Shown here piece by piece: positions 1-35,887 of a stretch of 35,887 nucleotides of DNA. This DNA is from a virus. Numbering within the stretch: the stretch's first letter is position 1; every line of letters starts with the position of its first letter. The notes beneath the pieces are model-generated. The model was not told the DNA's origin and searched no databases. It worked only from the letters and a program-made list of their open reading frames with translations. The DNA is taken from IMG/VR virus record IMGVR_UViG_3300045988_088904, positions 1 to 35,887 of that record. One strand, 5' to 3'. The position numbers and the translations under genes are program-made.

Positions 1-555
1 GCGATGGCCGAGGCGGAGCGTTCCGAACGCATACCGCTGTACATACAGGAGTCCGCCGGGATGACGGTGGACGACCTCCGGGCAGAGACGCTCTGCGGGC
101 AGTACGACGTAATCTTCATCGATTACGTTCAGCTCGTCCCCGGACGGAGCCGGGACAGCCGGTTTGAGACCGTGACGGCGACGTCAATGGCGCTGCACTC
201 GATGGCGCAGGAGCTCGGTGTGACGGTGGTCGCACTGTCGCAGGTGACGCCGCCGGAACCCGGAAAGGACGGCAAGCGCCGTCAGCTGCGCAAGGAGGAT
301 CTCCGAGAGAGCCGGCAGCTCCTCCAGGACGCCGAGGCGATCCTGATGATGGACCTCGCCGACCCGAAGGACTATAAGAGCCAGCGCGTTCTGATCGTCG
401 ACAAGAACAAGGACGGCGCACTCGGCAGCGTCCGGCTCGACTTCGACCCGGAGCACATGAGATTCACGACCGCGCAGCGCAGCGGCAAGCCCCCGCTGCC
501 GGATCAGGTGACGTTCAAAGAGCTGCCGGACAACGGCGACGAGCTCCCGTTTTAG
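1..555 (+). CDS. dnaB: DnaB-family replicative DNA helicase, C-terminal part (same ORF as 35074..35887, joined across the circular junction)
   Basis: Open from base 1 to TAG 553-555. Bases 1-55 equal 35833-35887 in the same codon phase as the ORF starting at ATG 35074. RecA-like C-terminal segment (IFIDYVQLV, ALSQV). Confidence 0.85.
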   Translation, partial: AMAEAERSERIPLYIQESAGMTVDDLRAETLCGQYDVIFIDYVQLVPGRSRDSRFETVTATSMALHSMAQELGVTVVALSQVTPPEPGKDGKRRQLRKEDLRESRQLLQDAEAILMMDLADPKDYKSQRVLIVDKNKDGALGSVRLDFDPEHMRFTTAQRSGKPPLPDQVTFKELPDNGDELPF

Positions 556-3354: not shown

Positions 3355-3685
3355 AAAGACCCGTGAGGCTGTCTATCAGAAATACGCCGGGCACTGTGCA
3401 TATTGCGGCCGGCCGCTCGCCTACAAGGACATGCAGGTCGACCACTTTAGACCGCTGCGAGCATGGGACGCGGAGGATGCAGGAACCGACGATATCTCGA
3501 ACCTCATGCCGGCGTGCCGGATGTGTAACCATTATAAGCGGGCAAACAGCATTGAAACGTTTCGCAGATACATCCGGGAAATCCCGCAAAAGCTCCGAGA
3601 CAATTACATCTACAAGGTTGGCCTTGCTTATGGCACCGTCACAGAGCGCGAAAAGCCGATAGTGTTTTATTTTGAATTATTTTGA
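3341..3685 (+). CDS. HNH endonuclease
   Basis: ATG 3341 after GGAGGAGG (3327-3334). CAYCG...VDHFRP...NLMPACRMCNHYK is an HNH/zinc-finger motif set. Confidence 0.8.
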   Translation: MAISKKTREAVYQKYAGHCAYCGRPLAYKDMQVDHFRPLRAWDAEDAGTDDISNLMPACRMCNHYKRANSIETFRRYIREIPQKLRDNYIYKVGLAYGTVTEREKPIVFYFELF

Positions 3686-3693
3686 GGAGGAAA

Positions 3694-3912
3694 ATGTCAA
3701 TGGATGCTCAAGCTTCTGATGTTGCGCCGGTGAATAGCTATTGGGAAAGTTATTCGTGTTTGCAGTTTATGGGGACAGATGAATGGGGCGAACCGAAATG
3801 GCGCGCTGGTAGGTTTTACGTCTGCCACAACTACAAATGCCGATGGAAAACGGTTGTAAAAAGTAACTTCTGCCCCAACTGCGGCGCGAGAATGGACGGT
3901 GAAGAGCCGTGA
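3694..3912 (+). CDS. Small zinc-ribbon protein
   Basis: GAGGAGG RBS 5 nt before ATG 3694. C-terminal CHNYKC...CPNCG Cys pairs. Confidence 0.6.
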   Translation: MSMDAQASDVAPVNSYWESYSCLQFMGTDEWGEPKWRAGRFYVCHNYKCRWKTVVKSNFCPNCGARMDGEEP

Positions 3913-5036: not shown

Positions 5037-5788
5037 ATGCCCGAGAGCATAGCCCTTAACTGTGACTGCATGGAGTACATGCGGTCACTGCCCGACAAGG
5101 CGTTTGACCTTGCCGTGGTTGACCCGCCGTATGGTGGCGGATGTTCACAGTCTGTTAAAGAAGAGAGAGAGACGGGCTCCACGGCGGAGCTGCTGACTAC
5201 GAAAGCAAACCTCGGTCGCGATTCGGCGGCATCTTCGACCGCTACTATATCGGCAGCCCGGACAGGTGGGACATGGGCGGCGAAGTACCGCCAACGAACA
5301 CTGGGGCTGATATCCGTCATTGGGATATCGCCCCGATTCAAGAATACTTCGATGAGCTTGCCCGGGTGAGCAAGAGCCAGATAATCTGGGGCGGGAATTA
5401 TTTCAACCTCCCGCCGACGCGCTGCTTTCTGATATGGCGCAAGCTAAATATTCCGCTTGAGGGGTTCAGCATGGCTCCTGTGGAGTATGCGTGGACATCT
5501 TTCAATCTTAACGCCGCAATGTGCGAGTTTTTCTCCTCCGGCGGCAGCGGCCGCGGGGAACGATTTCATCCGACGCAAAAGCCCGTAGATCTGTATACAT
5601 GGATCTTCAAACACTATGCCAAGCCCGGCGACCGAATCCTCGACACGCACCTCGGCTCCGGCAGCAGCCGCATCGCGGCGTACAGTCTCGGCTTTGACTT
5701 CGTCGGCTGCGAAATCGACAAAACATATTTTGAACTTGAGGAGAAGCGCTTCGAGACCTTCGCCTCACAGCAAAGCTTATTTTACTAA
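5037..5788 (+). pseudogene. Beta-class amino-DNA methyltransferase (N6A/N4C, DPPY type), interrupted by at least one frameshift
   Basis: Frame A (5037-5369) carries motif IV VVDPPYGG and RTGGTWAAKY. Frame B (-1 relative to A, open from 5159) carries IIWGGNYF, HPTQKP and motif I ILDTHLGSGSS through to stop 5788. The switch must lie between 5289 and 5311. Confidence 0.75.
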
Positions 5789-5839
5789 TTAAACATTGCG
5801 GTCTATGGCCATGAGGCAGAGGACGTCAGGAGTATGCAC

Positions 5840-6562
5840 ATGGCTTACCGCAAAAAAATCATCTCGGCCGGGCCGCTGGTCAAGGAGATCATATACCCGT
5901 ATCGCTCAGGCGGCAGCAGCCCAAACGGCCGGCGGCGCACCGGGACGAGCTCGGAAGCGCAGCGCCGGATGAACGCTATTTATTCATGGCAGAAACTTGA
6001 GCTGCTGCTCGCGGCGAACCTCGTCAAGGGCGATGTCGTCGGGTGCCTGACCTTCGACGACTATCACCTCCCGGAGACCCGCGAGCAGGTCCGGAACAAA
6101 TTCAAGTGGTTTCTCGACAAGCTCCGGGCAGCGCGCGAGGAACGAGGACAGACCCTCGTCATGTTCTGGTCGATTGAGCACCTCCACGGCGAGGGGCGCT
6201 GGCATATACATATAGCGTGCAACGCTACCGGCAACGACTATGAAGAAATGCTCCGGCTATGGGGGCAAGGCGAGTGTGAGTTCAACGCGCTGCGTGTGGA
6301 TAAGAAGAAGAACTATGAGACCTTAGCCCGGTACATGGCCAAGGAGGAACGGGACAAGGTAGGGCAGCGCTCTTGGAGCTACACCCGCAACGCCAAGAAG
6401 CCGGAAGTTGAGAGCTTCTCCGTGCGGGAGTTCGCGCCGCTGCGCGTGCCGAAGGACACGACAGTGTTCGAGGACGTCCGCAGCCGCGGCGAATGGCAGT
6501 ACATCAAATACGCTTATAACAACGCGCTTAAGGTTCGGCGGCACCGCAGACGCCGGTCGTAG
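5840..6562 (+). CDS. HUH-superfamily Rep-like (rolling-circle initiator/relaxase-type) protein
   Basis: AGGAG 7 nt before ATG 5840. Motif I GCLTFDD, motif II HIHIAC (HIH codons 6203-6211), motif III YMAKE (Tyr codon 6332-6334). Confidence 0.6.
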   Translation: MAYRKKIISAGPLVKEIIYPYRSGGSSPNGRRRTGTSSEAQRRMNAIYSWQKLELLLAANLVKGDVVGCLTFDDYHLPETREQVRNKFKWFLDKLRAAREERGQTLVMFWSIEHLHGEGRWHIHIACNATGNDYEEMLRLWGQGECEFNALRVDKKKNYETLARYMAKEERDKVGQRSWSYTRNAKKPEVESFSVREFAPLRVPKDTTVFEDVRSRGEWQYIKYAYNNALKVRRHRRRRS

Positions 6563-6565
6563 ATT

Positions 6566-6582
6566 GTGCCCGATTCGGGCAC
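6566..6582. repeat. Dispersed palindrome copy 3 (GTGCCCGATTCGGGCAC), 3 nt after the Rep-like stop
   Basis: Exact core with central T (opposite orientation to copies 1, 2 and 4). Followed by CGGAAAATCTTTTTT. Confidence 0.95.
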
Positions 6583-6655
6583 CGGAAAATCTTTTTTATA
6601 AATTTTTTCTGGCTTGAAACCTATGTTATTAAAAGGAAAGGAGTGCTGAAAAGTA

Positions 6656-6856
6656 TTGCAATCCCAAGGTTTTTCTGGTAAACTAACAGTGAAAGACGGG
6701 TTCCTCCAGTGCCCGACCTGCCGCGGCAATAAAAAGCTGCTCAAGATCGAGCCGGACACAACGGCGACTAATCTGGTCGTCTTCTGCCGCTTCTGCAAAA
6801 CCGAACATCGGATCGACATCAGTCGGGGCCAGTGCTTTAAGAGCCGGGGCCAGTGA
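6656..6856 (+). CDS. Cysteine-rich KTR-like zinc-ribbon protein (moron)
   Basis: CPTCRGNKKLLKIEPDT...CRFCKTEHRIDI matches the CPxC..K..LKI..DT...CxxCK.E pattern of the Cys_rich_KTR family (recollection). TTG 6656 or in-frame GTG 6689 is the start. Lies in a low-GC island with its own terminator. Confidence 0.55.
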   Translation: MQSQGFSGKLTVKDGFLQCPTCRGNKKLLKIEPDTTATNLVVFCRFCKTEHRIDISRGQCFKSRGQ

Positions 6857-6898
6857 TAGACACATGAGTGTGTTTGTCGCTGGCCCCGGCTCTTTTTC
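6841..6898 (+). terminator. Rho-independent-type terminator hairpin
   Basis: 13-bp perfect stem GAGCCGGGGCCAG (6841-6853) / CTGGCCCCGGCTC (6880-6892), 26-nt loop, then a T run at 6893-6898. The stem overlaps the last codons of the KTR-like gene. Confidence 0.65.
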
Positions 6899-6961
6899 GT
6901 TTCCCGGACAGCGCCGAGGCGATAGCCGGCGCACGGGGAAGAAAAGGCCGGGTGTCCGCGT

Positions 6962-20687: not shown

Positions 20688-20947
20688 TGGGCTGCTGCGG
20701 GCTGACCGTCGAGCTGATAGACGAGGCCCTGACCGTTGAGCTCGGCTCCGCCATCGTCAGCAGCGGCGGGAGCATCCATGACTATTATGACGGCGCGTAT
20801 GACGTCGAGCCGCTCCGGACGGCACAGGTGCTGGAGACCGAGGGGCTCGTCATGCGCAAGGACGTGAACGTCCGGGGCGTCACCTTTCAGCAGACCACCA
20901 ACGCCGCCGGAGGAAAGACCTGCAACATAGGAGGTGCAGATAACTAA
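20687..20947 (+). CDS. Hypothetical tail-module protein
   Basis: ATG overlaps the upstream TGA. C-terminal TTNAAGGKTCNIGG motif is shared with the next protein. Confidence 0.5.
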   Translation: MGCCGLTVELIDEALTVELGSAIVSSGGSIHDYYDGAYDVEPLRTAQVLETEGLVMRKDVNVRGVTFQQTTNAAGGKTCNIGGADN

Positions 20948-21522
20948 TGGGAAACAGTAAAATCATTTTTTACGGCGAGACCCTGATGGATCTCACCGGC
21001 GACACCGTAAGCAAGGAGAAACTGCTCAAGGGGATCACCGCGCACGACAAGGCCGGTGATCCCGTCATCGGCACGTGTGAGTTTGATAGCGACACGAGCG
21101 ACGCCACCGCGAACGTGGACGATCTCCTCGCCGGGGAGACCGCTTACGCGCGCGGCGCGAAGCTTACCGGCACCATGCCAAACCGCGGCGCTGCGGCCGG
21201 GGAGATCGCCTCCAAGGACGGCGAGTACACCATTGAGCTCGGCTACCACGACGGCAGCGGCAAGGTCGGCATAGCCGCCGCGGAGAAGCTGAAGCTCGTC
21301 GCCGGGAATATCAAAAAAGATGTGACGATCCTCGGCGTCAAGGGTACCTATGGCGGCGAGAGCGTCAACGCACAGAGCAAGAACGCGACCCCGGCCAAGA
21401 CGGCACAGACGATCCTCCCCGACGAGGGCTACGACTACCTCTCTGAGGTCGTTATTGCCGCCGTGCCGTACACCAGCGCTGCGAACGCTGCCGGAGGTAT
21501 GACCGTCACGATCGGAGCCTGA
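20947..21522 (+). CDS. Tail fibre / receptor-binding candidate, paralog A
   Basis: N-terminus MGNSKIIFYGETLMDLTGDTVSKEKLLKGITAHDKAGDPVIGT is shared with the next gene. Confidence 0.6.
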   Translation: MGNSKIIFYGETLMDLTGDTVSKEKLLKGITAHDKAGDPVIGTCEFDSDTSDATANVDDLLAGETAYARGAKLTGTMPNRGAAAGEIASKDGEYTIELGYHDGSGKVGIAAAEKLKLVAGNIKKDVTILGVKGTYGGESVNAQSKNATPAKTAQTILPDEGYDYLSEVVIAAVPYTSAANAAGGMTVTIGA

Positions 21523-21524
21523 GC

Positions 21525-22340
21525 ATGGGCAACAGTAAGATCGTCTACTATGGCGAGACGCTGATAGACCTCACCGGCGACACCGTCGAGGCCGCGAAGC
21601 TCCTCAAGGGCATCACGGCGCACGACAAGAAGGGTGAGACGATCACCGGCACGTTTGAGGCGGCCGACCCCTACGCGGCCATCGGGGTGACATACCCCTC
21701 GGGGAGCGTCTGCACCTGCACGAACGGCACACTGACGCTGACGGCGAAAGACACGAGCGGCAAGGCGATATTCGTTATCCCCTCCGCCGGGACGTGGACG
21801 GTCACGGCGGTCAGCGGCAGCAAGAGCACGAGCAAAACGGTGTCAATCACAGCTGAGGGGCAAGTTGAGACTGTGACGCTGATGTTTGAAACGATACTCT
21901 GGGAGGCAGGCTCCGATCAGAACACGTCCTTAACAGGCGGCTTTGCTGTAAATGACACGAACTATGTCACGGTGGGCGACAGCACAGTAACCATAACTGG
22001 TAACAGGACATACTTCGGTGAGGGCAGTAACAATTGGTCATACAGTGGCAACTTTTACACCAAGAAGAAAGTGACCAAAGGTGAGTTCGAGTATTTCTGC
22101 GCCAACATCATAACGAATACCGGCACCAACGCCGACAATAAAGCGTGGCTTTACGCAGCAGACCAATATAATTTTACCGAGGGCAATACGATTACAAGAC
22201 TTGAAATTCCGGTCACTACTGGCGAAACAGGCATATTCAGGATGCCCCTTACTGGGGTAACTTCTGCTGTTCTCGGCATCCGAGTCTATGGTTCCATGGA
22301 CAAGCAAACGATCGTCACAGACAAGATTTGGCTTGAATAA
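21525..22340 (+). CDS. Tail fibre / receptor-binding candidate, paralog B
   Basis: N-terminus MGNSKIVYYGETLIDLTGDTVEAAKLLKGITAHDKKGETITGT. C-terminal half is markedly lower in GC. Confidence 0.6.
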   Translation: MGNSKIVYYGETLIDLTGDTVEAAKLLKGITAHDKKGETITGTFEAADPYAAIGVTYPSGSVCTCTNGTLTLTAKDTSGKAIFVIPSAGTWTVTAVSGSKSTSKTVSITAEGQVETVTLMFETILWEAGSDQNTSLTGGFAVNDTNYVTVGDSTVTITGNRTYFGEGSNNWSYSGNFYTKKKVTKGEFEYFCANIITNTGTNADNKAWLYAADQYNFTEGNTITRLEIPVTTGETGIFRMPLTGVTSAVLGIRVYGSMDKQTIVTDKIWLE

Positions 22341-33161: not shown

Positions 33162-33452
33162 ATGTTTGAGAACAAGTATGTAATCGTCCGCGGCGATCAC
33201 TCCGGCGTATTTGCCGGGCATCTCAAGAGCAAGGAGGGCAGAGAGGTCACGCTGACCGACTGCCGCCGTATCTGGTATTGGGACGGTGCAGCCAGCATAT
33301 CCGAGCTTGCCAACATAGGCACCAAGAAACCCCAGTCCTGTAAGTTCCCCGCACCGGTCGCCGAGATCTGTATAACGGACGCGATCGAGATCATCCCCTG
33401 CACCGAGGCCGCAGAGGCGAGCATCAAGGCGGTTCGCGTATGGACAGCTTAA
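33162..33452 (+). CDS. Hypothetical conserved phage protein
   Basis: AAAGGAGG RBS. VIVRGDHSGVFAGHL...CRRIWYWDGAASISELA resembles a recurrent phage family of unknown function (recollection). Confidence 0.6.
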   Translation: MFENKYVIVRGDHSGVFAGHLKSKEGREVTLTDCRRIWYWDGAASISELANIGTKKPQSCKFPAPVAEICITDAIEIIPCTEAAEASIKAVRVWTA

Positions 33453-34246
33453 CAGTTCAGGAGTTCCTGAAGGTCGAATTTAACGGCTACGGCTCCGGCT
33501 GCGGCGACGGCTCCGGCGACGGCTACGGCGACGGCTCCGGCGACGGCTACGGCGACGGCTCCGGCTACGGCTACGGCGACGGCTACGGCTCCGGCTACGG
33601 CTACGGCGACGGCTACGGCTACGGCTACGGCTCCGGCGACGGCTACGGCGACGGCTCCGGCGACGGCTACGGCGACGGCTCCGGCTACGGCTACGGCGAC
33701 GGCTACGGCTACGGCGACGGCTCCGGCGACGGCTACGGCGACGGCTCCGGCTCCGGCGACGGCTACGGCTACGGCTCCGGCTTAAAGAGCCTCTGTGGAG
33801 AACCTGTCTATATGATCGACGGTGTGCCGACGATCATCACCGGGCTCCGCGGCTCTGTCGCGATGGGGTTTATCGTGATGATTGATCTGTCGAAGCGTAA
33901 GACATTCGTCGTCAAGGGCGGCGGGAAGTTCGCGCACGGTGAGAATCTCCACGCAGCACAGGCAGCACTGGAGGAGAAGCTTTTTGACGATATGCCCGTC
34001 GAGGAGAAGCTTGAAGCGTTCCGGGAGCAGTTCACACCGGGCGAGTCCTACACCGTCGCGGACTTCTACGACTGGCACCATCGCCTCACGGGCAGCTGCA
34101 CGCAGGGGCGCGATGCCTTCGCGCAGGATCATGAGCTCAGCATGAACGACGCTATGACCCCGGAGGAGTTCATCGACCTGACTAAGGACGCATTTGGCGG
34201 CCGGATCATTCGCCAGCTTGCGGAGCACTACGGTATTGATCTCTGA
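33440..34246 (+). CDS. Protein with (Gly-X)49 low-complexity region (X = Tyr/Asp/Ser) and a globular C-terminal domain of unknown function
   Basis: ATG 33440 overlaps the upstream gene. 268 aa, with residues 16-114 a strict Gly-X alternation. Confidence 0.7.
   Translation: MDSLTVQEFLKVEFNGYGSGCGDGSGDGYGDGSGDGYGDGSGYGYGDGYGSGYGYGDGYGYGYGSGDGYGDGSGDGYGDGSGYGYGDGYGYGDGSGDGYGDGSGSGDGYGYGSGLKSLCGEPVYMIDGVPTIITGLRGSVAMGFIVMIDLSKRKTFVVKGGGKFAHGENLHAAQAALEEKLFDDMPVEEKLEAFREQFTPGESYTVADFYDWHHRLTGSCTQGRDAFAQDHELSMNDAMTPEEFIDLTKDAFGGRIIRQLAEHYGIDL
33485..33781 (+). repeat. Perfect hexanucleotide tandem array GGC-(TAC/GAC/TCC), 49 units
   Basis: Only four hexamer types occur: GGCTAC x20, GGCGAC x16, GGCTCC x12, GGCTGC x1. 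An 82-bp internal duplication, 33509-33590 = 33629-33710. Confidence 0.97.
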
Positions 34247-34309: not shown

Positions 34310-35083
34310 ATGGGAGTAATTCGCGTTGAGCACACGCGGGACTTCACTGTCATGAGCAATGTTCACCTGCGTGACGACAGGCTCAGTCTCCGAGCAATCG
34401 GGCTTATGAGCAAGATGCTGAGTAATACTGACGATTACCAGTACACTGTTTCAGGATTGGCAGCGCGATGTAAGGAGGGCAGGGACGCGGTGCGGAAGGC
34501 ACTGCAAGAGCTTGAGGCGGCAGGGTACCTCGTGCGTGAGCAAGGACACGGGGCGTGCGGCAAATTCAGCGGCTACGACTACACTCTGTACGAAAGCCCT
34601 CGAACGCCTTGCAATAGTGAGGGGGTGCCGTTGACTGAAAAGCCGACGACGGCAGAACCGTTGACGGAGAATCCGCCACAAAGAAGTACTAATCTTGAAG
34701 AAATACTAAATATACCCCCTATAGTCCCCCATGAGGGGGACGGTGTGGGTGAAGGAAAGAGAAAGCGGAAGCGCGTTCCGAAGTCGGTTCCAGACTGGGA
34801 GCCGGAAATGTTTGAGCGATTCTGGAAGGCCTACCCACGCGGCAATGATCGTCAAGGGGCAGTACGTGAATGGGACAACCTGAAGCCTTCCCGCAAACTC
34901 ATGATGATTATGAGTGCTGCGCTCCTCCGTCAAAAGGACAGCGAGGACTGGCAGCGCGGGATCGGTATACCATACGCCTGCCGGTGGCTCTCGAAGCGTC
35001 GGTGGGAAGATGAAGACAGGGCGCAGCCCGAACCGCGGACGAGCGGTGCGGGTGACGGAGGGGAGCGCGAAGAATGGACCTGA
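34310..35083 (+). CDS. Replisome organizer / replication initiator with N-terminal winged-helix domain (DnaD-like context)
   Basis: GAGGGTGG RBS. N-terminal FTVMSNVHLRDDRLSLRAIGLMSKMLS...GLAARCKEGRDAVRKALQELEAAGYL. Stop overlaps the helicase start. Confidence 0.65.
   Translation: MGVIRVEHTRDFTVMSNVHLRDDRLSLRAIGLMSKMLSNTDDYQYTVSGLAARCKEGRDAVRKALQELEAAGYLVREQGHGACGKFSGYDYTLYESPRTPCNSEGVPLTEKPTTAEPLTENPPQRSTNLEEILNIPPIVPHEGDGVGEGKRKRKRVPKSVPDWEPEMFERFWKAYPRGNDRQGAVREWDNLKPSRKLMMIMSAALLRQKDSEDWQRGIGIPYACRWLSKRRWEDEDRAQPEPRTSGAGDGGEREEWT
34628..34741. other. Candidate replication origin inside the organizer gene
   Basis: 18-bp iterons CCGTTGACTGAAAAGCCG (34628-34645) and CCGTTGACGGAGAATCCG (34658-34675). 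An AT-rich tract at 34681-34715. A 7-bp hairpin GTCCCCC/GGGGGAC at 34724-34741. Confidence 0.4.
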
Positions 35084-35887
35084 CCGACTACTCAGCCTAC
35101 TACGACGCTCAGACGGCAGTCCTCGGCTCGCTGCTGATAGAGCCGGAGAAGCTCGCGGGACAGATCATGCACGTGGTCAGGCCGGAGGACTTCTCCGACC
35201 CCGTCAAGCGAAACCTCTTCACCGCGGCGCGGGAGATATTCCTCAAGCGCGAGACTCTCGACGCCGTGACGCTCGTGGAGCATGTCGGCGCTGCGTATTC
35301 GCAGCAGGTGCGCGAGATACTCCAGCTGACTCCGACGGCGAATAACTGGCGCGAGTATGTGAAGCTCCTTAAGAACGGCGCGATGCTGACACGCATCCGC
35401 GATCTGGGGCAGGCGCTCACAGAGGCGGCCAGCGCGGAGGACGGGCGGAGGCTCCTTGTCGAGGCACAGGGGATGCTGAGTGTGAGGCCCGGGCGGCGAG
35501 TCCGGAACTACACGGAGATCCTCGCGGACTTCTTCGACCGCATGAACGACCCGACACCGCCGGACTTCCTCAAGTTCGGGATCGAGGCGCTGGACAAAAA
35601 GGTCAGGATCAGCCGCGGCAGCTTCGTCGTCATAGGCGCGGACAGCTCCGTCGGCAAGACGGCATTCTCCCTGCAGCTCGCGTATAACATCGCAGCCGGC
35701 GGGAGCCGGGTCTGCTTCTTCAGCTACGAGACGAGCCTTGAGGCGTCGGCCGACCGCACGATCGCGAACACCGCAGATGCGCGGCTGTCGGACATCAAGG
35801 CGAAGAATATATCCGAGCACGTCGCCCGCCGGGCGATGGCCGAGGCGGAGCGTTCCGAACGCATACCGCTGTACATACAGGAGTCCG
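35074..35887 (+). CDS. dnaB: DnaB-family replicative helicase, N-terminal part (runs off the window end and continues at 56..555 via the circular junction)
   Basis: ATG 35074 overlaps the upstream stop. TAVLGSLLIEPEKL is a DnaB N-terminal motif. Walker A GADSSVGKT. No stop before the window end. The joined length is 437 aa. Confidence 0.85.
   Translation, partial: MDLTDYSAYYDAQTAVLGSLLIEPEKLAGQIMHVVRPEDFSDPVKRNLFTAAREIFLKRETLDAVTLVEHVGAAYSQQVREILQLTPTANNWREYVKLLKNGAMLTRIRDLGQALTEAASAEDGRRLLVEAQGMLSVRPGRRVRNYTEILADFFDRMNDPTPPDFLKFGIEALDKKVRISRGSFVVIGADSSVGKTAFSLQLAYNIAAGGSRVCFFSYETSLEASADRTIANTADARLSDIKAKNISEHVARRAMAEAERSERIPLYIQES
35833..35887 (+). repeat. 55-nt exact duplicate of bases 1-55 (circular assembly overlap)
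   Basis: Direct comparison shows GCGATGGCCGAGGCGGAGCGTTCCGAACGCATACCGCTGTACATACAGGAGTCCG at both ends. Confidence 0.97.

Follow-up and report, generated by a model that had tools for sequence, protein, structure and literature searches.

A Rep-class HUH protein of gut siphoviruses and a conserved neighbouring site at which it may start rolling-circle replication

Introduction

IMG/VR virus record IMGVR_UViG_3300045988_088904, analysed here over its full length of 35,887 nucleotides (the window), is a temperate siphovirus-type genome that carries, at the boundary between its early and late genes, a gene for a 240-residue protein of the replication initiator (Rep) type. A first-pass annotation, made from the letters and the open reading frames (ORFs), had described this protein as an HUH nickase additional to a theta-type replication module, and had offered three functions for it: initiation of late rolling-circle replication, mobilisation of the element, or action on hairpins dispersed through the genome. 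We report here what profile, structure and comparative searches say about the protein and about the DNA next to its gene. The protein family was already known; what is new is a conserved site linked to Rep.

The known Firmicutes phages, such as SPP1 and the Sak/Sak4-dependent staphylococcal phages, use recombination-dependent restart. How tailed phages with a replisome organizer and DnaB arrive at packageable concatemers is understood in few models, in which the process is recombination-dependent (PMC3485210, PMC5499656).

Results

The Rep locus

The Rep gene and the signals that follow it are laid out in the window as listed below, with residues numbered from the first of two possible start codons.

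5840-6562, plus strand: Rep gene, a predicted 240-aa HUH rolling-circle-type initiator (ORF, PF23343, PHROG 3584, AlphaFold model and fold matches)
6041-6061, plus strand: motif I, GCLTFDD; L72 and T73 nearly invariant (at least 90% of sequences)
6203-6211, plus strand: HUH motif, H124-I-H126 in 242-aa numbering, within RWHIHIACN, from the alignment
6332-6346, plus strand: motif III, Y167-M-A-K170-E171, within ARYMAKE, with the Tyr codon at 6332-6334; candidate catalytic tyrosine, lysine and acidic residue at i+4
6566-6582, no strand assigned: palindrome copy 3, GTGCCCGATTCGGGCAC, with a 7-bp stem and a 3-nt loop, 3 nt after the Rep stop
6589-6640, plus strand: Rep-associated element, consisting of a T-rich tract (6590-6609), TTTC-T-G-G and the core CTTGAAACCTATGTTATT (6613-6630); candidate double-strand origin or nick site
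6656-6684, plus strand: sigma-A-like promoter motif, TTGCAA-N17-(TG)G-TAAACT, which overlaps the start of the ORF listed next
6656-6856, plus strand: Cys-rich zinc-ribbon ORF, 66 aa (Pfam Cys_rich_KTR, 26.5 bits against a cut-off of 25.5)
6839-6900, plus strand: strong intrinsic terminator (hairpin 6839-6894) with 26-nt arms and a T-run, overlapping the zinc-ribbon stop and preceding the HNH and terminase genes

The Rep frame is open from the ATG at 5834 as well (5834-6562, 242 aa), and Y167 of that numbering is Y165 in the 240-aa protein. The true start is likely the ATG at 5840, because it is preceded at a distance of 8 nt by a GGAG (5828-5831) and because the closest homologues start with MAYRKKII. 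The stop codon, TAG, occupies 6560-6562. The three Rep/HUH motifs that the first-pass annotation had read in the 240-aa product are all found at the codons it gave, as are the palindrome that begins 3 nt after the stop and the T-rich tract behind it.

Rep is predicted to be an HUH endonuclease of the rolling-circle initiator class

Pfam family PF23343 (REP_ORF2-G2P) matched Rep residues 70-171 over profile positions 4-98 of 99 (39.7 bits against a gathering cut-off of 27.8, E = 6.1e-10), and PHROG 3584, "replication initiation protein", matched the protein from end to end (E = 1.7e-39). At E <= 1e-3 there were 250 homologues, and PF23343 was present in each of the 120 that were listed. Rep is in the ORF2/G2P family, which is common to the microvirus Reps and, by its Pfam name, to the gene II-type (G2P) Reps. 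The Rep_1, Rep_2 and Phage_GPA profiles gave no match in the Pfam scan, the NCBIfam scan gave no match, and a sequence search of the PDB returned nothing meaningful.

In an alignment of 36 homologues (47-98% identity), residues H124, H126, Y161, Y167, K170 and E171 are invariant. When the proteins of Flavonifractor phage Cormatin, Clostridium phage PhiS63 and Latilactobacillus phage TMW 1.46 P2 (24-28% identity) were added, H126, Y167 and K170 were still invariant; in these distant homologues position 171 is acidic (E or D) and Y161 is lost, and the TMW 1.46 P2 protein has N-H-H at the HUH position. Y167 is the right choice of catalytic tyrosine, since it is kept in the most distant homologues and Y161 is not, and the first-pass annotation, which had picked the same residue as Y165, chose well.

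The AlphaFold (AF2) model built on the alignment (predicted local distance difference test 85.9, predicted template modelling score 0.84) runs in the order motif I strand, helix, two strands with the HUH motif on the second, helix, strand and tyrosine helix. In the model L72-T73-F74 lie on strand 68-74, H124-I-H126 on strand 122-129, and Y167-M-A-K170 on helix 161-168 and the residues after it, C-terminal to the HUH motif. Foldseek against the PDB returned the SIRV1 ORF119 Rep as top match (probability 1.00, TM-score 0.65 on the target), followed by the Rep nuclease domains of adeno-associated virus, circovirus and vientovirus, all at weak E-values (2e-3 to 1e-1). Among the predicted viral structures of BFVD the best match reached 5.7e-15; the leading matches are metagenomic siphovirus proteins labelled "ORF2/G2P domain" or "Replication gene A protein", and microvirus initiators come after them (E 1e-5 to 1e-4).

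Profile, fold and conservation agree that Rep is a genuine HUH endonuclease of the Rep class, predicted to be an active single-tyrosine enzyme of the rolling-circle initiator type. The nickase identity proposed by the first-pass annotation holds on each of these lines (PF23343, PHROG 3584, AF2 fold and residue conservation): the profile searches and the structure prediction gave an HUH Rep fold and not another one, with the motif residues conserved among homologues.

The Rep family in tailed phages

A profile search of 1.84 billion cluster representatives returned 3454 Rep-family clusters (50% identity) at E <= 1e-3, and among the 150 best of these the length is mostly 230-270 aa. By tblastn, homologues were found in PhiS63, Cormatin, TMW 1.46 P2 and several faecal phage contigs, and those of the three named phages are already annotated as replication proteins. 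Rep is a further member of a large known family, annotated in many gut tailed phages, and is no rarity, so that the surprise expressed by the first-pass annotation at an HUH Rep in a tailed phage was overstated. The notion of a captured plasmid Rep with close plasmid relatives was dropped, as tblastn of Rep against 72,556 plasmid records gave no homologue.

The genes around Rep are highly consistent in 71 IMG/VR loci and in several contigs from metagenomes. The common gene order is organizer (HTH_36), DnaB, ParA, a ParB_N protein, small ORFs, Rep, a Cys-rich ORF of 55-70 aa, HNH and TerS (variable) and TerL, and in all loci of the window group Rep lies directly upstream of the cassette at the early/late boundary. 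Cormatin, among the phages with a PF23343/PHROG 3584 protein, has the same order (organizer, DnaB, ParA, ParB-like, Rep, zinc-ribbon, HNH, TerS, TerL), although the window Rep is only 24-28% identical to those of Cormatin, PhiS63 and TMW 1.46 P2. The packaging module is swapped right after the Cys-rich ORF, even where Rep is 94-98% identical (L014, L017, L027), and Rep therefore belongs to the left-hand early/replication module. Rep, the conserved element and the zinc-ribbon ORF remain linked despite this exchange.

The complete genomes of PhiS63 and TMW 1.46 P2, the latter sequenced from isolated virions, contain no DnaB, organizer or ParAB, and Rep is their only recognisable replication gene; none of the ten unknown proteins neighbouring Rep in these two phages has a Pfam replication match. 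To judge from gene content, these Rep-only phages give the strongest indirect indication that a protein of this family is able to initiate tailed-phage replication.

Two readings of the gene fare poorly in view of these results. The first, that it is a decaying and functionless remnant of a Rep captured from a single-stranded DNA (ssDNA) phage or a plasmid, could appeal to the other replication module present in the genome and to the adjoining methyltransferase gene, which seems frameshifted. We hold it to be highly improbable: the ORF is full-length, its length (about 240-270 aa) and catalytic residues are kept across the 3454 clusters, dozens of phage lineages show strict synteny, and purifying selection is already strong. 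The second sees in Rep a relaxase-like protein for mobilisation: it would nick an oriT and so permit conjugative transfer of the prophage. HUH chemistry is indeed common to relaxases, and ParA/ParB-like genes and Cys_rich_KTR proteins are also found on Firmicutes conjugative elements. However, the order in Rep is HUH and then tyrosine, as in Reps, whereas the relaxase tyrosine is N-terminal to the HUH motif; no relaxase family was matched in the profile scans; no coupling-protein, type IV secretion or other transfer genes were seen in the annotated parts of the 35.8-kb genome or its relatives; and all contexts of the gene are complete siphovirus genomes. Mobilisation, the second function offered by the first-pass annotation, is accordingly given hardly any credence here.

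A conserved single-copy element accompanies Rep

Alignment of the DNA 3' of the Rep stop from 40 loci, with Rep identities of 35-100%, gave the consensus CCTTTTTATTtAaTTTTTC(T/A)GnCTTGRAAnnnRTATTAT. The motif CTYG-N7-TRTTAWY has 80 matches in the 1.2 Mb of 85 loci, where about 4 are expected in all; 77 of the 80 are on the Rep strand and at most 400 nt from Rep, and 3 are elsewhere. A match so placed is present in 77 of the 85 loci. In the window it is present as a single copy, with the variant TGTTATT.

In the Oscillospiraceae group Rep precedes the motif; in PhiS63, TMW 1.46 P2 and the loci L081/L082 the motif is 70-290 nt 5' of Rep. It reads GGCTTGTAATAGGTATTATCTTAAG in PhiS63, 73 nt before the Rep start, GTGCTTGTATGCTGTATTATCTTTACG in TMW 1.46 P2, 134 nt before the Rep start, and CTCGTAATGGGTATTAAC upstream of Rep in L081/L082; in PhiS63 and TMW 1.46 P2 no zinc-ribbon ORF follows directly after Rep. 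When the last base of the motif is allowed to be A, the Cormatin genome has a single match, CTTGATGGTTTTATTATA, on the Rep strand and upstream of Rep, in the intergenic region that heads the Rep-containing operon. The T-rich tract, which the first-pass annotation had seen and mentioned only in passing, is thus part of an element that co-occurs with Rep, an importance that had been missed.

Two other identities for the element were tried and rejected. As a conserved hairpin or RNA structure it has a consensus energy of -0.77 kcal/mol and no compensatory pairs; as a sigma-70 promoter it has TTGAAA and TATTAT only 4-5 nt apart, with no -35 sequence at 17 nt upstream.

The initiators of pC194 and phiX174 cut after the G of CTTG. 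In the element, ATCCTTTT is followed by a T-rich run and then by CTTG, a layout that resembles the double-strand origin of pC194, printed as AATCCTTTTCTTTCTTATCTTGATAATAAGGG (PMC7072734), and which we treat as no more than a lead. Taken together, the rep gene and this single, conserved, strand-specific site beside it have the anatomy of a rolling-circle cassette.

The dispersed palindrome does not track Rep

The window holds 7 copies of the palindrome (at 1565, 2786, 6566, 12627, 24344, 28030 and 28960), against 0.25 expected by chance. A copy follows the Rep stop in all phages with at least 94% identical Rep, with a loop that varies (GATTC, TATTC, GAATC), and in L031, one relative at 66%, the variant GTGCCCATCTGGGCAC takes its place. 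In the other diverged loci among the 40 aligned, the Rep stop leads straight into the T-rich tract with no palindrome. A hidden terminator hairpin in the 3' end of Rep was considered for the loci that lack the palindrome and discarded, as the folds were inconsistent.

The wider family GTGYCC-N4-5-GGRCAC has 84 copies in the diverged loci against 0.6 expected, with at least 2 copies in 26 of 37 loci; L031, L035, L037, L054, L056, L060 and L086 are among those that carry it. In the window, L031, L039, L054, L056 and L060 the ParB-like gene contains a copy some 30 nt from its start, and in the window clade, L035 and L036 there is one near its end. Both ParB-gene copies of the window are within the coding sequence and read V-P-E-S-G-T, and across the many lineages with a copy near the start of the gene that copy reads V-P-E-S-G-T or V-S-K-L-D-T. 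The complete genomes of PhiS63 and TMW 1.46 P2, in which Rep is present and no ParB is annotated, contain zero copies. From its positions in the ParB gene and its absence from these two genomes, the palindrome family goes with the ParA/ParB-bearing phage group and not with Rep.

Dispersed centromere palindromes are known in plasmid-prophages, and by analogy the palindrome is a candidate parS-like site for the phage ParB. Copy 3 is also compatible with a role as the stem of an early-operon terminator, because a T-run comes next. Probably it either closes the early transcript together with that T-run or is a ParB-type binding site.

The first-pass annotation had proposed the adjacent and dispersed hairpins as a possible substrate of Rep, and one may imagine that Rep acts on the GTGCCC...GGGCAC hairpins in the manner of IS200/IS605 TnpA or RAYT enzymes, by processing them, by spreading them or by using copy 3 as an origin. 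HUH chemistry and a dispersed palindrome in the same genome are likenesses to those systems; in the window clade and L031 a copy separates Rep from the element, at 3 nt from the stop codon of the former and about 30 nt from the latter, and the palindrome family is over-represented in many Rep-bearing phages (the 84 copies against 0.6 expected). In pC194-type origins, moreover, a nearby palindrome serves initiation (PMC7072734). Yet most diverged loci have Rep and the element without a palindrome after Rep, and the PhiS63 and TMW 1.46 P2 genomes have Rep and no palindrome at all. The copy that many lineages have near the start of the ParB-like gene, and the copies in coding sequence generally, fit a ParB/parS-type site, and the loop differs among near-identical phages. 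Y1_Tnp gave no match to Rep at E <= 10, nor did any other transposase or relaxase family in the Pfam and NCBIfam scans, and the window Rep is larger than TnpA and RAYT proteins, with extra N- and C-terminal beta elements in the model. We consider this reading very unlikely. The palindrome is probably not a Rep target, and the hairpin beside Rep is a lineage-specific coincidence of two separate signals.

A promoter, a zinc-ribbon ORF and a terminator follow the element

A promoter-like motif, TTGnnn-N17-TGnTAnnnT, is present in most diverged loci at 52-93 nt beyond the end of Rep and in Cormatin at 38 nt; the matches have the form TTGnnn-N14-16-TGnTAnnnT. In the alignment of diverged loci TG and TAnAAT are constant even at third-codon positions, which argues that the promoter motif is under selection at the DNA level. 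The zinc-ribbon ORF is found 690-1100 nt after the start of the Rep match in nearly all loci that extend that far, and in the window phage group it is always directly 3' of Rep. A terminator hairpin is present at its stop codon in 42 of the 42 loci where the ORF could be located (RNAfold minimum free energy below the threshold of -25 kcal/mol throughout, at -33 to -67 kcal/mol over 110 nt), and a T-run comes after the hairpin in the sequences shown.

This cassette of promoter, zinc-ribbon ORF and terminator looks like the PR'-6S-tR' late-operon gate of lambda. By that analogy, its layout would imply control of the late genes by antitermination or read-through, and Rep could have a part in it.

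L014, L017 and L027, set against L009-L030, have near-identical Rep and zinc-ribbon genes and unrelated terminase modules (TerL 26% vs 99%), and such modules beside a 94-98% identical Rep place a recombination breakpoint immediately 3' of the zinc-ribbon terminator. Elsewhere in the window, a 76-aa ORF (3682-3912) gave a weak match to the Ogr/Delta zinc finger (E = 4.5e-4, 20.5 bits, below the cut-off of 26.3) and may be relevant to late-gene control.

Proposed role of Rep

Of the three functions first offered for the protein, initiation of rolling-circle replication is the best supported, and we lean, with modest confidence, towards the reading that Rep nicks the conserved element to start it. 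For the position and strand of the nick, the role in replication and the cooperation with DnaB, we infer the following course. Rep would recognise the AT-rich site that is present once, about 50 nt beyond the end of its gene (the T-rich tract and CTTG-N7-TGTTATT, 6590-6630, on the gene strand) and would nick the plus strand, probably at or beside CTTG if pC194 and phiX174 are a guide. Tyr167 would join covalently to the 5' end, and the free 3'-OH would prime rolling-circle (sigma) synthesis rightwards, co-directional with almost all genes. The DnaD-like loader and the DnaB helicase would support unwinding and lagging-strand synthesis, and the product would be double-stranded concatemers for the HNH/terminase packaging machine. 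Rep may be the sole initiator, or it may bring about a late switch from theta to sigma on top of an organizer-dependent origin. No recombinase or exonuclease was recognised among the scanned early ORFs, which, as negative evidence only, is compatible with a nickase that replaces recombination-dependent initiation of sigma replication.

Several points weigh against this reading. Rep is perhaps dispensable for initiation, because the organizer and DnaB could suffice for theta replication. The likeness of the element to the nick sites of pC194 and phiX174 is short and AT-rich. The fold search against solved structures was modest (best E 2.4e-3). With no homologue on plasmids, the Rep subfamily has no proven autonomous rolling-circle replicon, and in the literature on PF23343 and on HUH Reps in siphoviruses we found no experimental evidence on any family member. 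Finally, in the window group the element lies at a roughly fixed distance upstream of the promoter-like motif and the zinc-ribbon ORF, and in L041 and L049, which have extra DNA after Rep, it stays by the zinc-ribbon ORF and not by the Rep stop. This constant distance makes it possible that the element is a regulatory site.

On such a view Rep would bind, and perhaps nick, the element mainly as a regulatory act, either for autoregulation or to couple replication to late-gene expression. The element is about 40 nt 5' of the conserved sigma-A-like promoter, followed by the zinc-ribbon ORF and the terminator, an arrangement that recalls Q-PR'-tR' of lambda or the replication-dependent late transcription of P2 with its zinc-finger Ogr. 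The DNA-level conservation of the promoter motif inside the 5' end of the zinc-ribbon ORF, the strong terminator in every locus where the ORF was located, the fact that every locus of the group has Rep just before the cassette, where early genes give way to late ones, and the behaviour of L041 and L049 all speak for it. However, the element accompanies Rep in PhiS63, TMW 1.46 P2 and L081/L082 too, and the first two of these have no zinc-ribbon ORF directly after Rep. In these genomes Rep is an early-region gene, kilobases ahead of the terminase genes. The invariance of the catalytic histidine and tyrosine across thousands of clusters points to chemistry and not to mere binding, and we know of no HUH protein that acts as an antiterminator or activator. 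Because the element is present in phages without the promoter-terminator cassette, it would be Rep's own site, and we judge a mainly regulatory role unlikely.

If initiation of rolling-circle replication at the element is correct, the Rep nick would be a simple alternative route to concatemers in thousands of gut phage lineages, and the 18-nt motif would be a ready marker for the origins of such phages. A broader proposal, which we put forward tentatively and regard as doubtful, is that gut Clostridia siphoviruses solve the passage from theta to sigma by means of a 240-aa HUH nickase that acts at one site at the early/late boundary. The nick could then also time late-gene expression to replication, because the site is about 40 nt upstream of the promoter-terminator cassette that guards the packaging genes. 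The attractive but wrong link between Rep and the hairpin is replaced here by a defined 50-nt substrate for biochemistry, and three signals that lie within 350 nt, namely the dispersed palindrome, the Rep site and the promoter-terminator cassette, are told apart.

Comparison with known systems

The RepA (RepH) protein of pC194 and gpA of phiX174 have, like the window Rep, an HUH motif plus a tyrosine on the next helix, and pC194 RepA has a Tyr/Glu pair that the acidic residue four positions from the tyrosine of Rep recalls. The candidate site is likewise a pyrimidine- or T-rich run and then CTTG, AT-rich and with no conserved hairpin, as in AATCCTTTTCTTTCTTATCTTGATAATAAGGG. Unlike these initiators, the window Rep has no sequence match to Rep_1 or Rep_2 and no counterpart on plasmids, and it is encoded in a 36-kb double-stranded DNA (dsDNA) tailed phage beside DnaB, for which a single-strand origin is neither needed nor seen.

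P2 and 186 are temperate tailed phages in which an HUH nickase, gene A, starts rolling-circle replication and a helicase-loading function is encoded as well. The label "Replication gene A protein" on one BFVD neighbour of Rep is in line with that likeness. P2 gpA, however, has about 760 aa, two tyrosines and an origin inside its own gene, whereas Rep has 240 aa, one conserved tyrosine, a candidate site outside the gene and no Phage_GPA match. The VP4/ORF2 proteins of the Microviridae (gokushovirus-type) are related to Rep by the name of the Pfam family and by the BFVD structural matches, but they are sole initiators of 4-6 kb ssDNA genomes and Rep is one gene of a dsDNA siphovirus. Within its own family, finally, Rep differs from those of PhiS63 and TMW 1.46 P2 in its setting: theirs are in the early region without DnaB or ParAB, and have the motif upstream and not downstream.

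Other features of the genome

Bases 1-55 of the window are identical to 35833-35887, and this exact 55-bp terminal redundancy marks it as a circular assembly; the circularly closed contig has 35,832 bp. Annotation bears out the organizer, DnaB, ParAB and integrase genes that had been read in the first pass. These and the late genes are placed as follows.

26790-28004, minus strand: integrase (gene annotation)
34310-35083, plus strand: HTH_36/DnaD-like replisome organizer or helicase loader (PHROG 270, 186 and 9327; PF13730 in homologous loci)
35074-35887, continuing over the circular junction to 555, plus strand: DnaB-type helicase, 5' part (circular translation; PF00772 and PF03796 in syntenic loci)
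4-555, plus strand: DnaB-type helicase, 3' part (circular translation)
788-1519: ParA-like
1532-2848: ParB-like
6962 onward: HNH, TerS and TerL
After TerL: ORFs of fitting position and length for portal, protease and capsid (synteny with annotated relatives)

Megablast of 25 kb against phage records gave fragment matches only. GC skew was uninformative as an origin indicator, as it tracks gene orientation. Within the organizer gene (34628-34675), CCGTTGACTGAAAAGCCG and CCGTTGACGGAGAATCCG form a pair of 18-nt direct repeats at a distance of 30 nt, possibly iterons of a theta-type origin; this one weak pair is the sole sign of such an origin, which is therefore an assumption. Directly 5' of the organizer is a long array of 12- and 18-nt tandem repeats (33423-33836) in an ORF (33440-34246) whose product is of low complexity, rich in Gly, Asp, Ser and Tyr, with no PHROG match.

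Near Rep, a DNA methyltransferase is encoded by two overlapping ORFs in different frames, 5037-5369 with the N-terminal DPPY and 5273-5788 with the C-terminal part. A frameshift, a programmed shift or decay to a pseudogene could account for the split, and in relatives the C-terminal part lies at two different distances from Rep. On the 3' side of the head and tail genes, two adjacent ORFs (20947-21522 and 21525-22340) are 80-84% identical over their 5' 135 nt or so, which makes them tandem paralogues with a common N-terminus.

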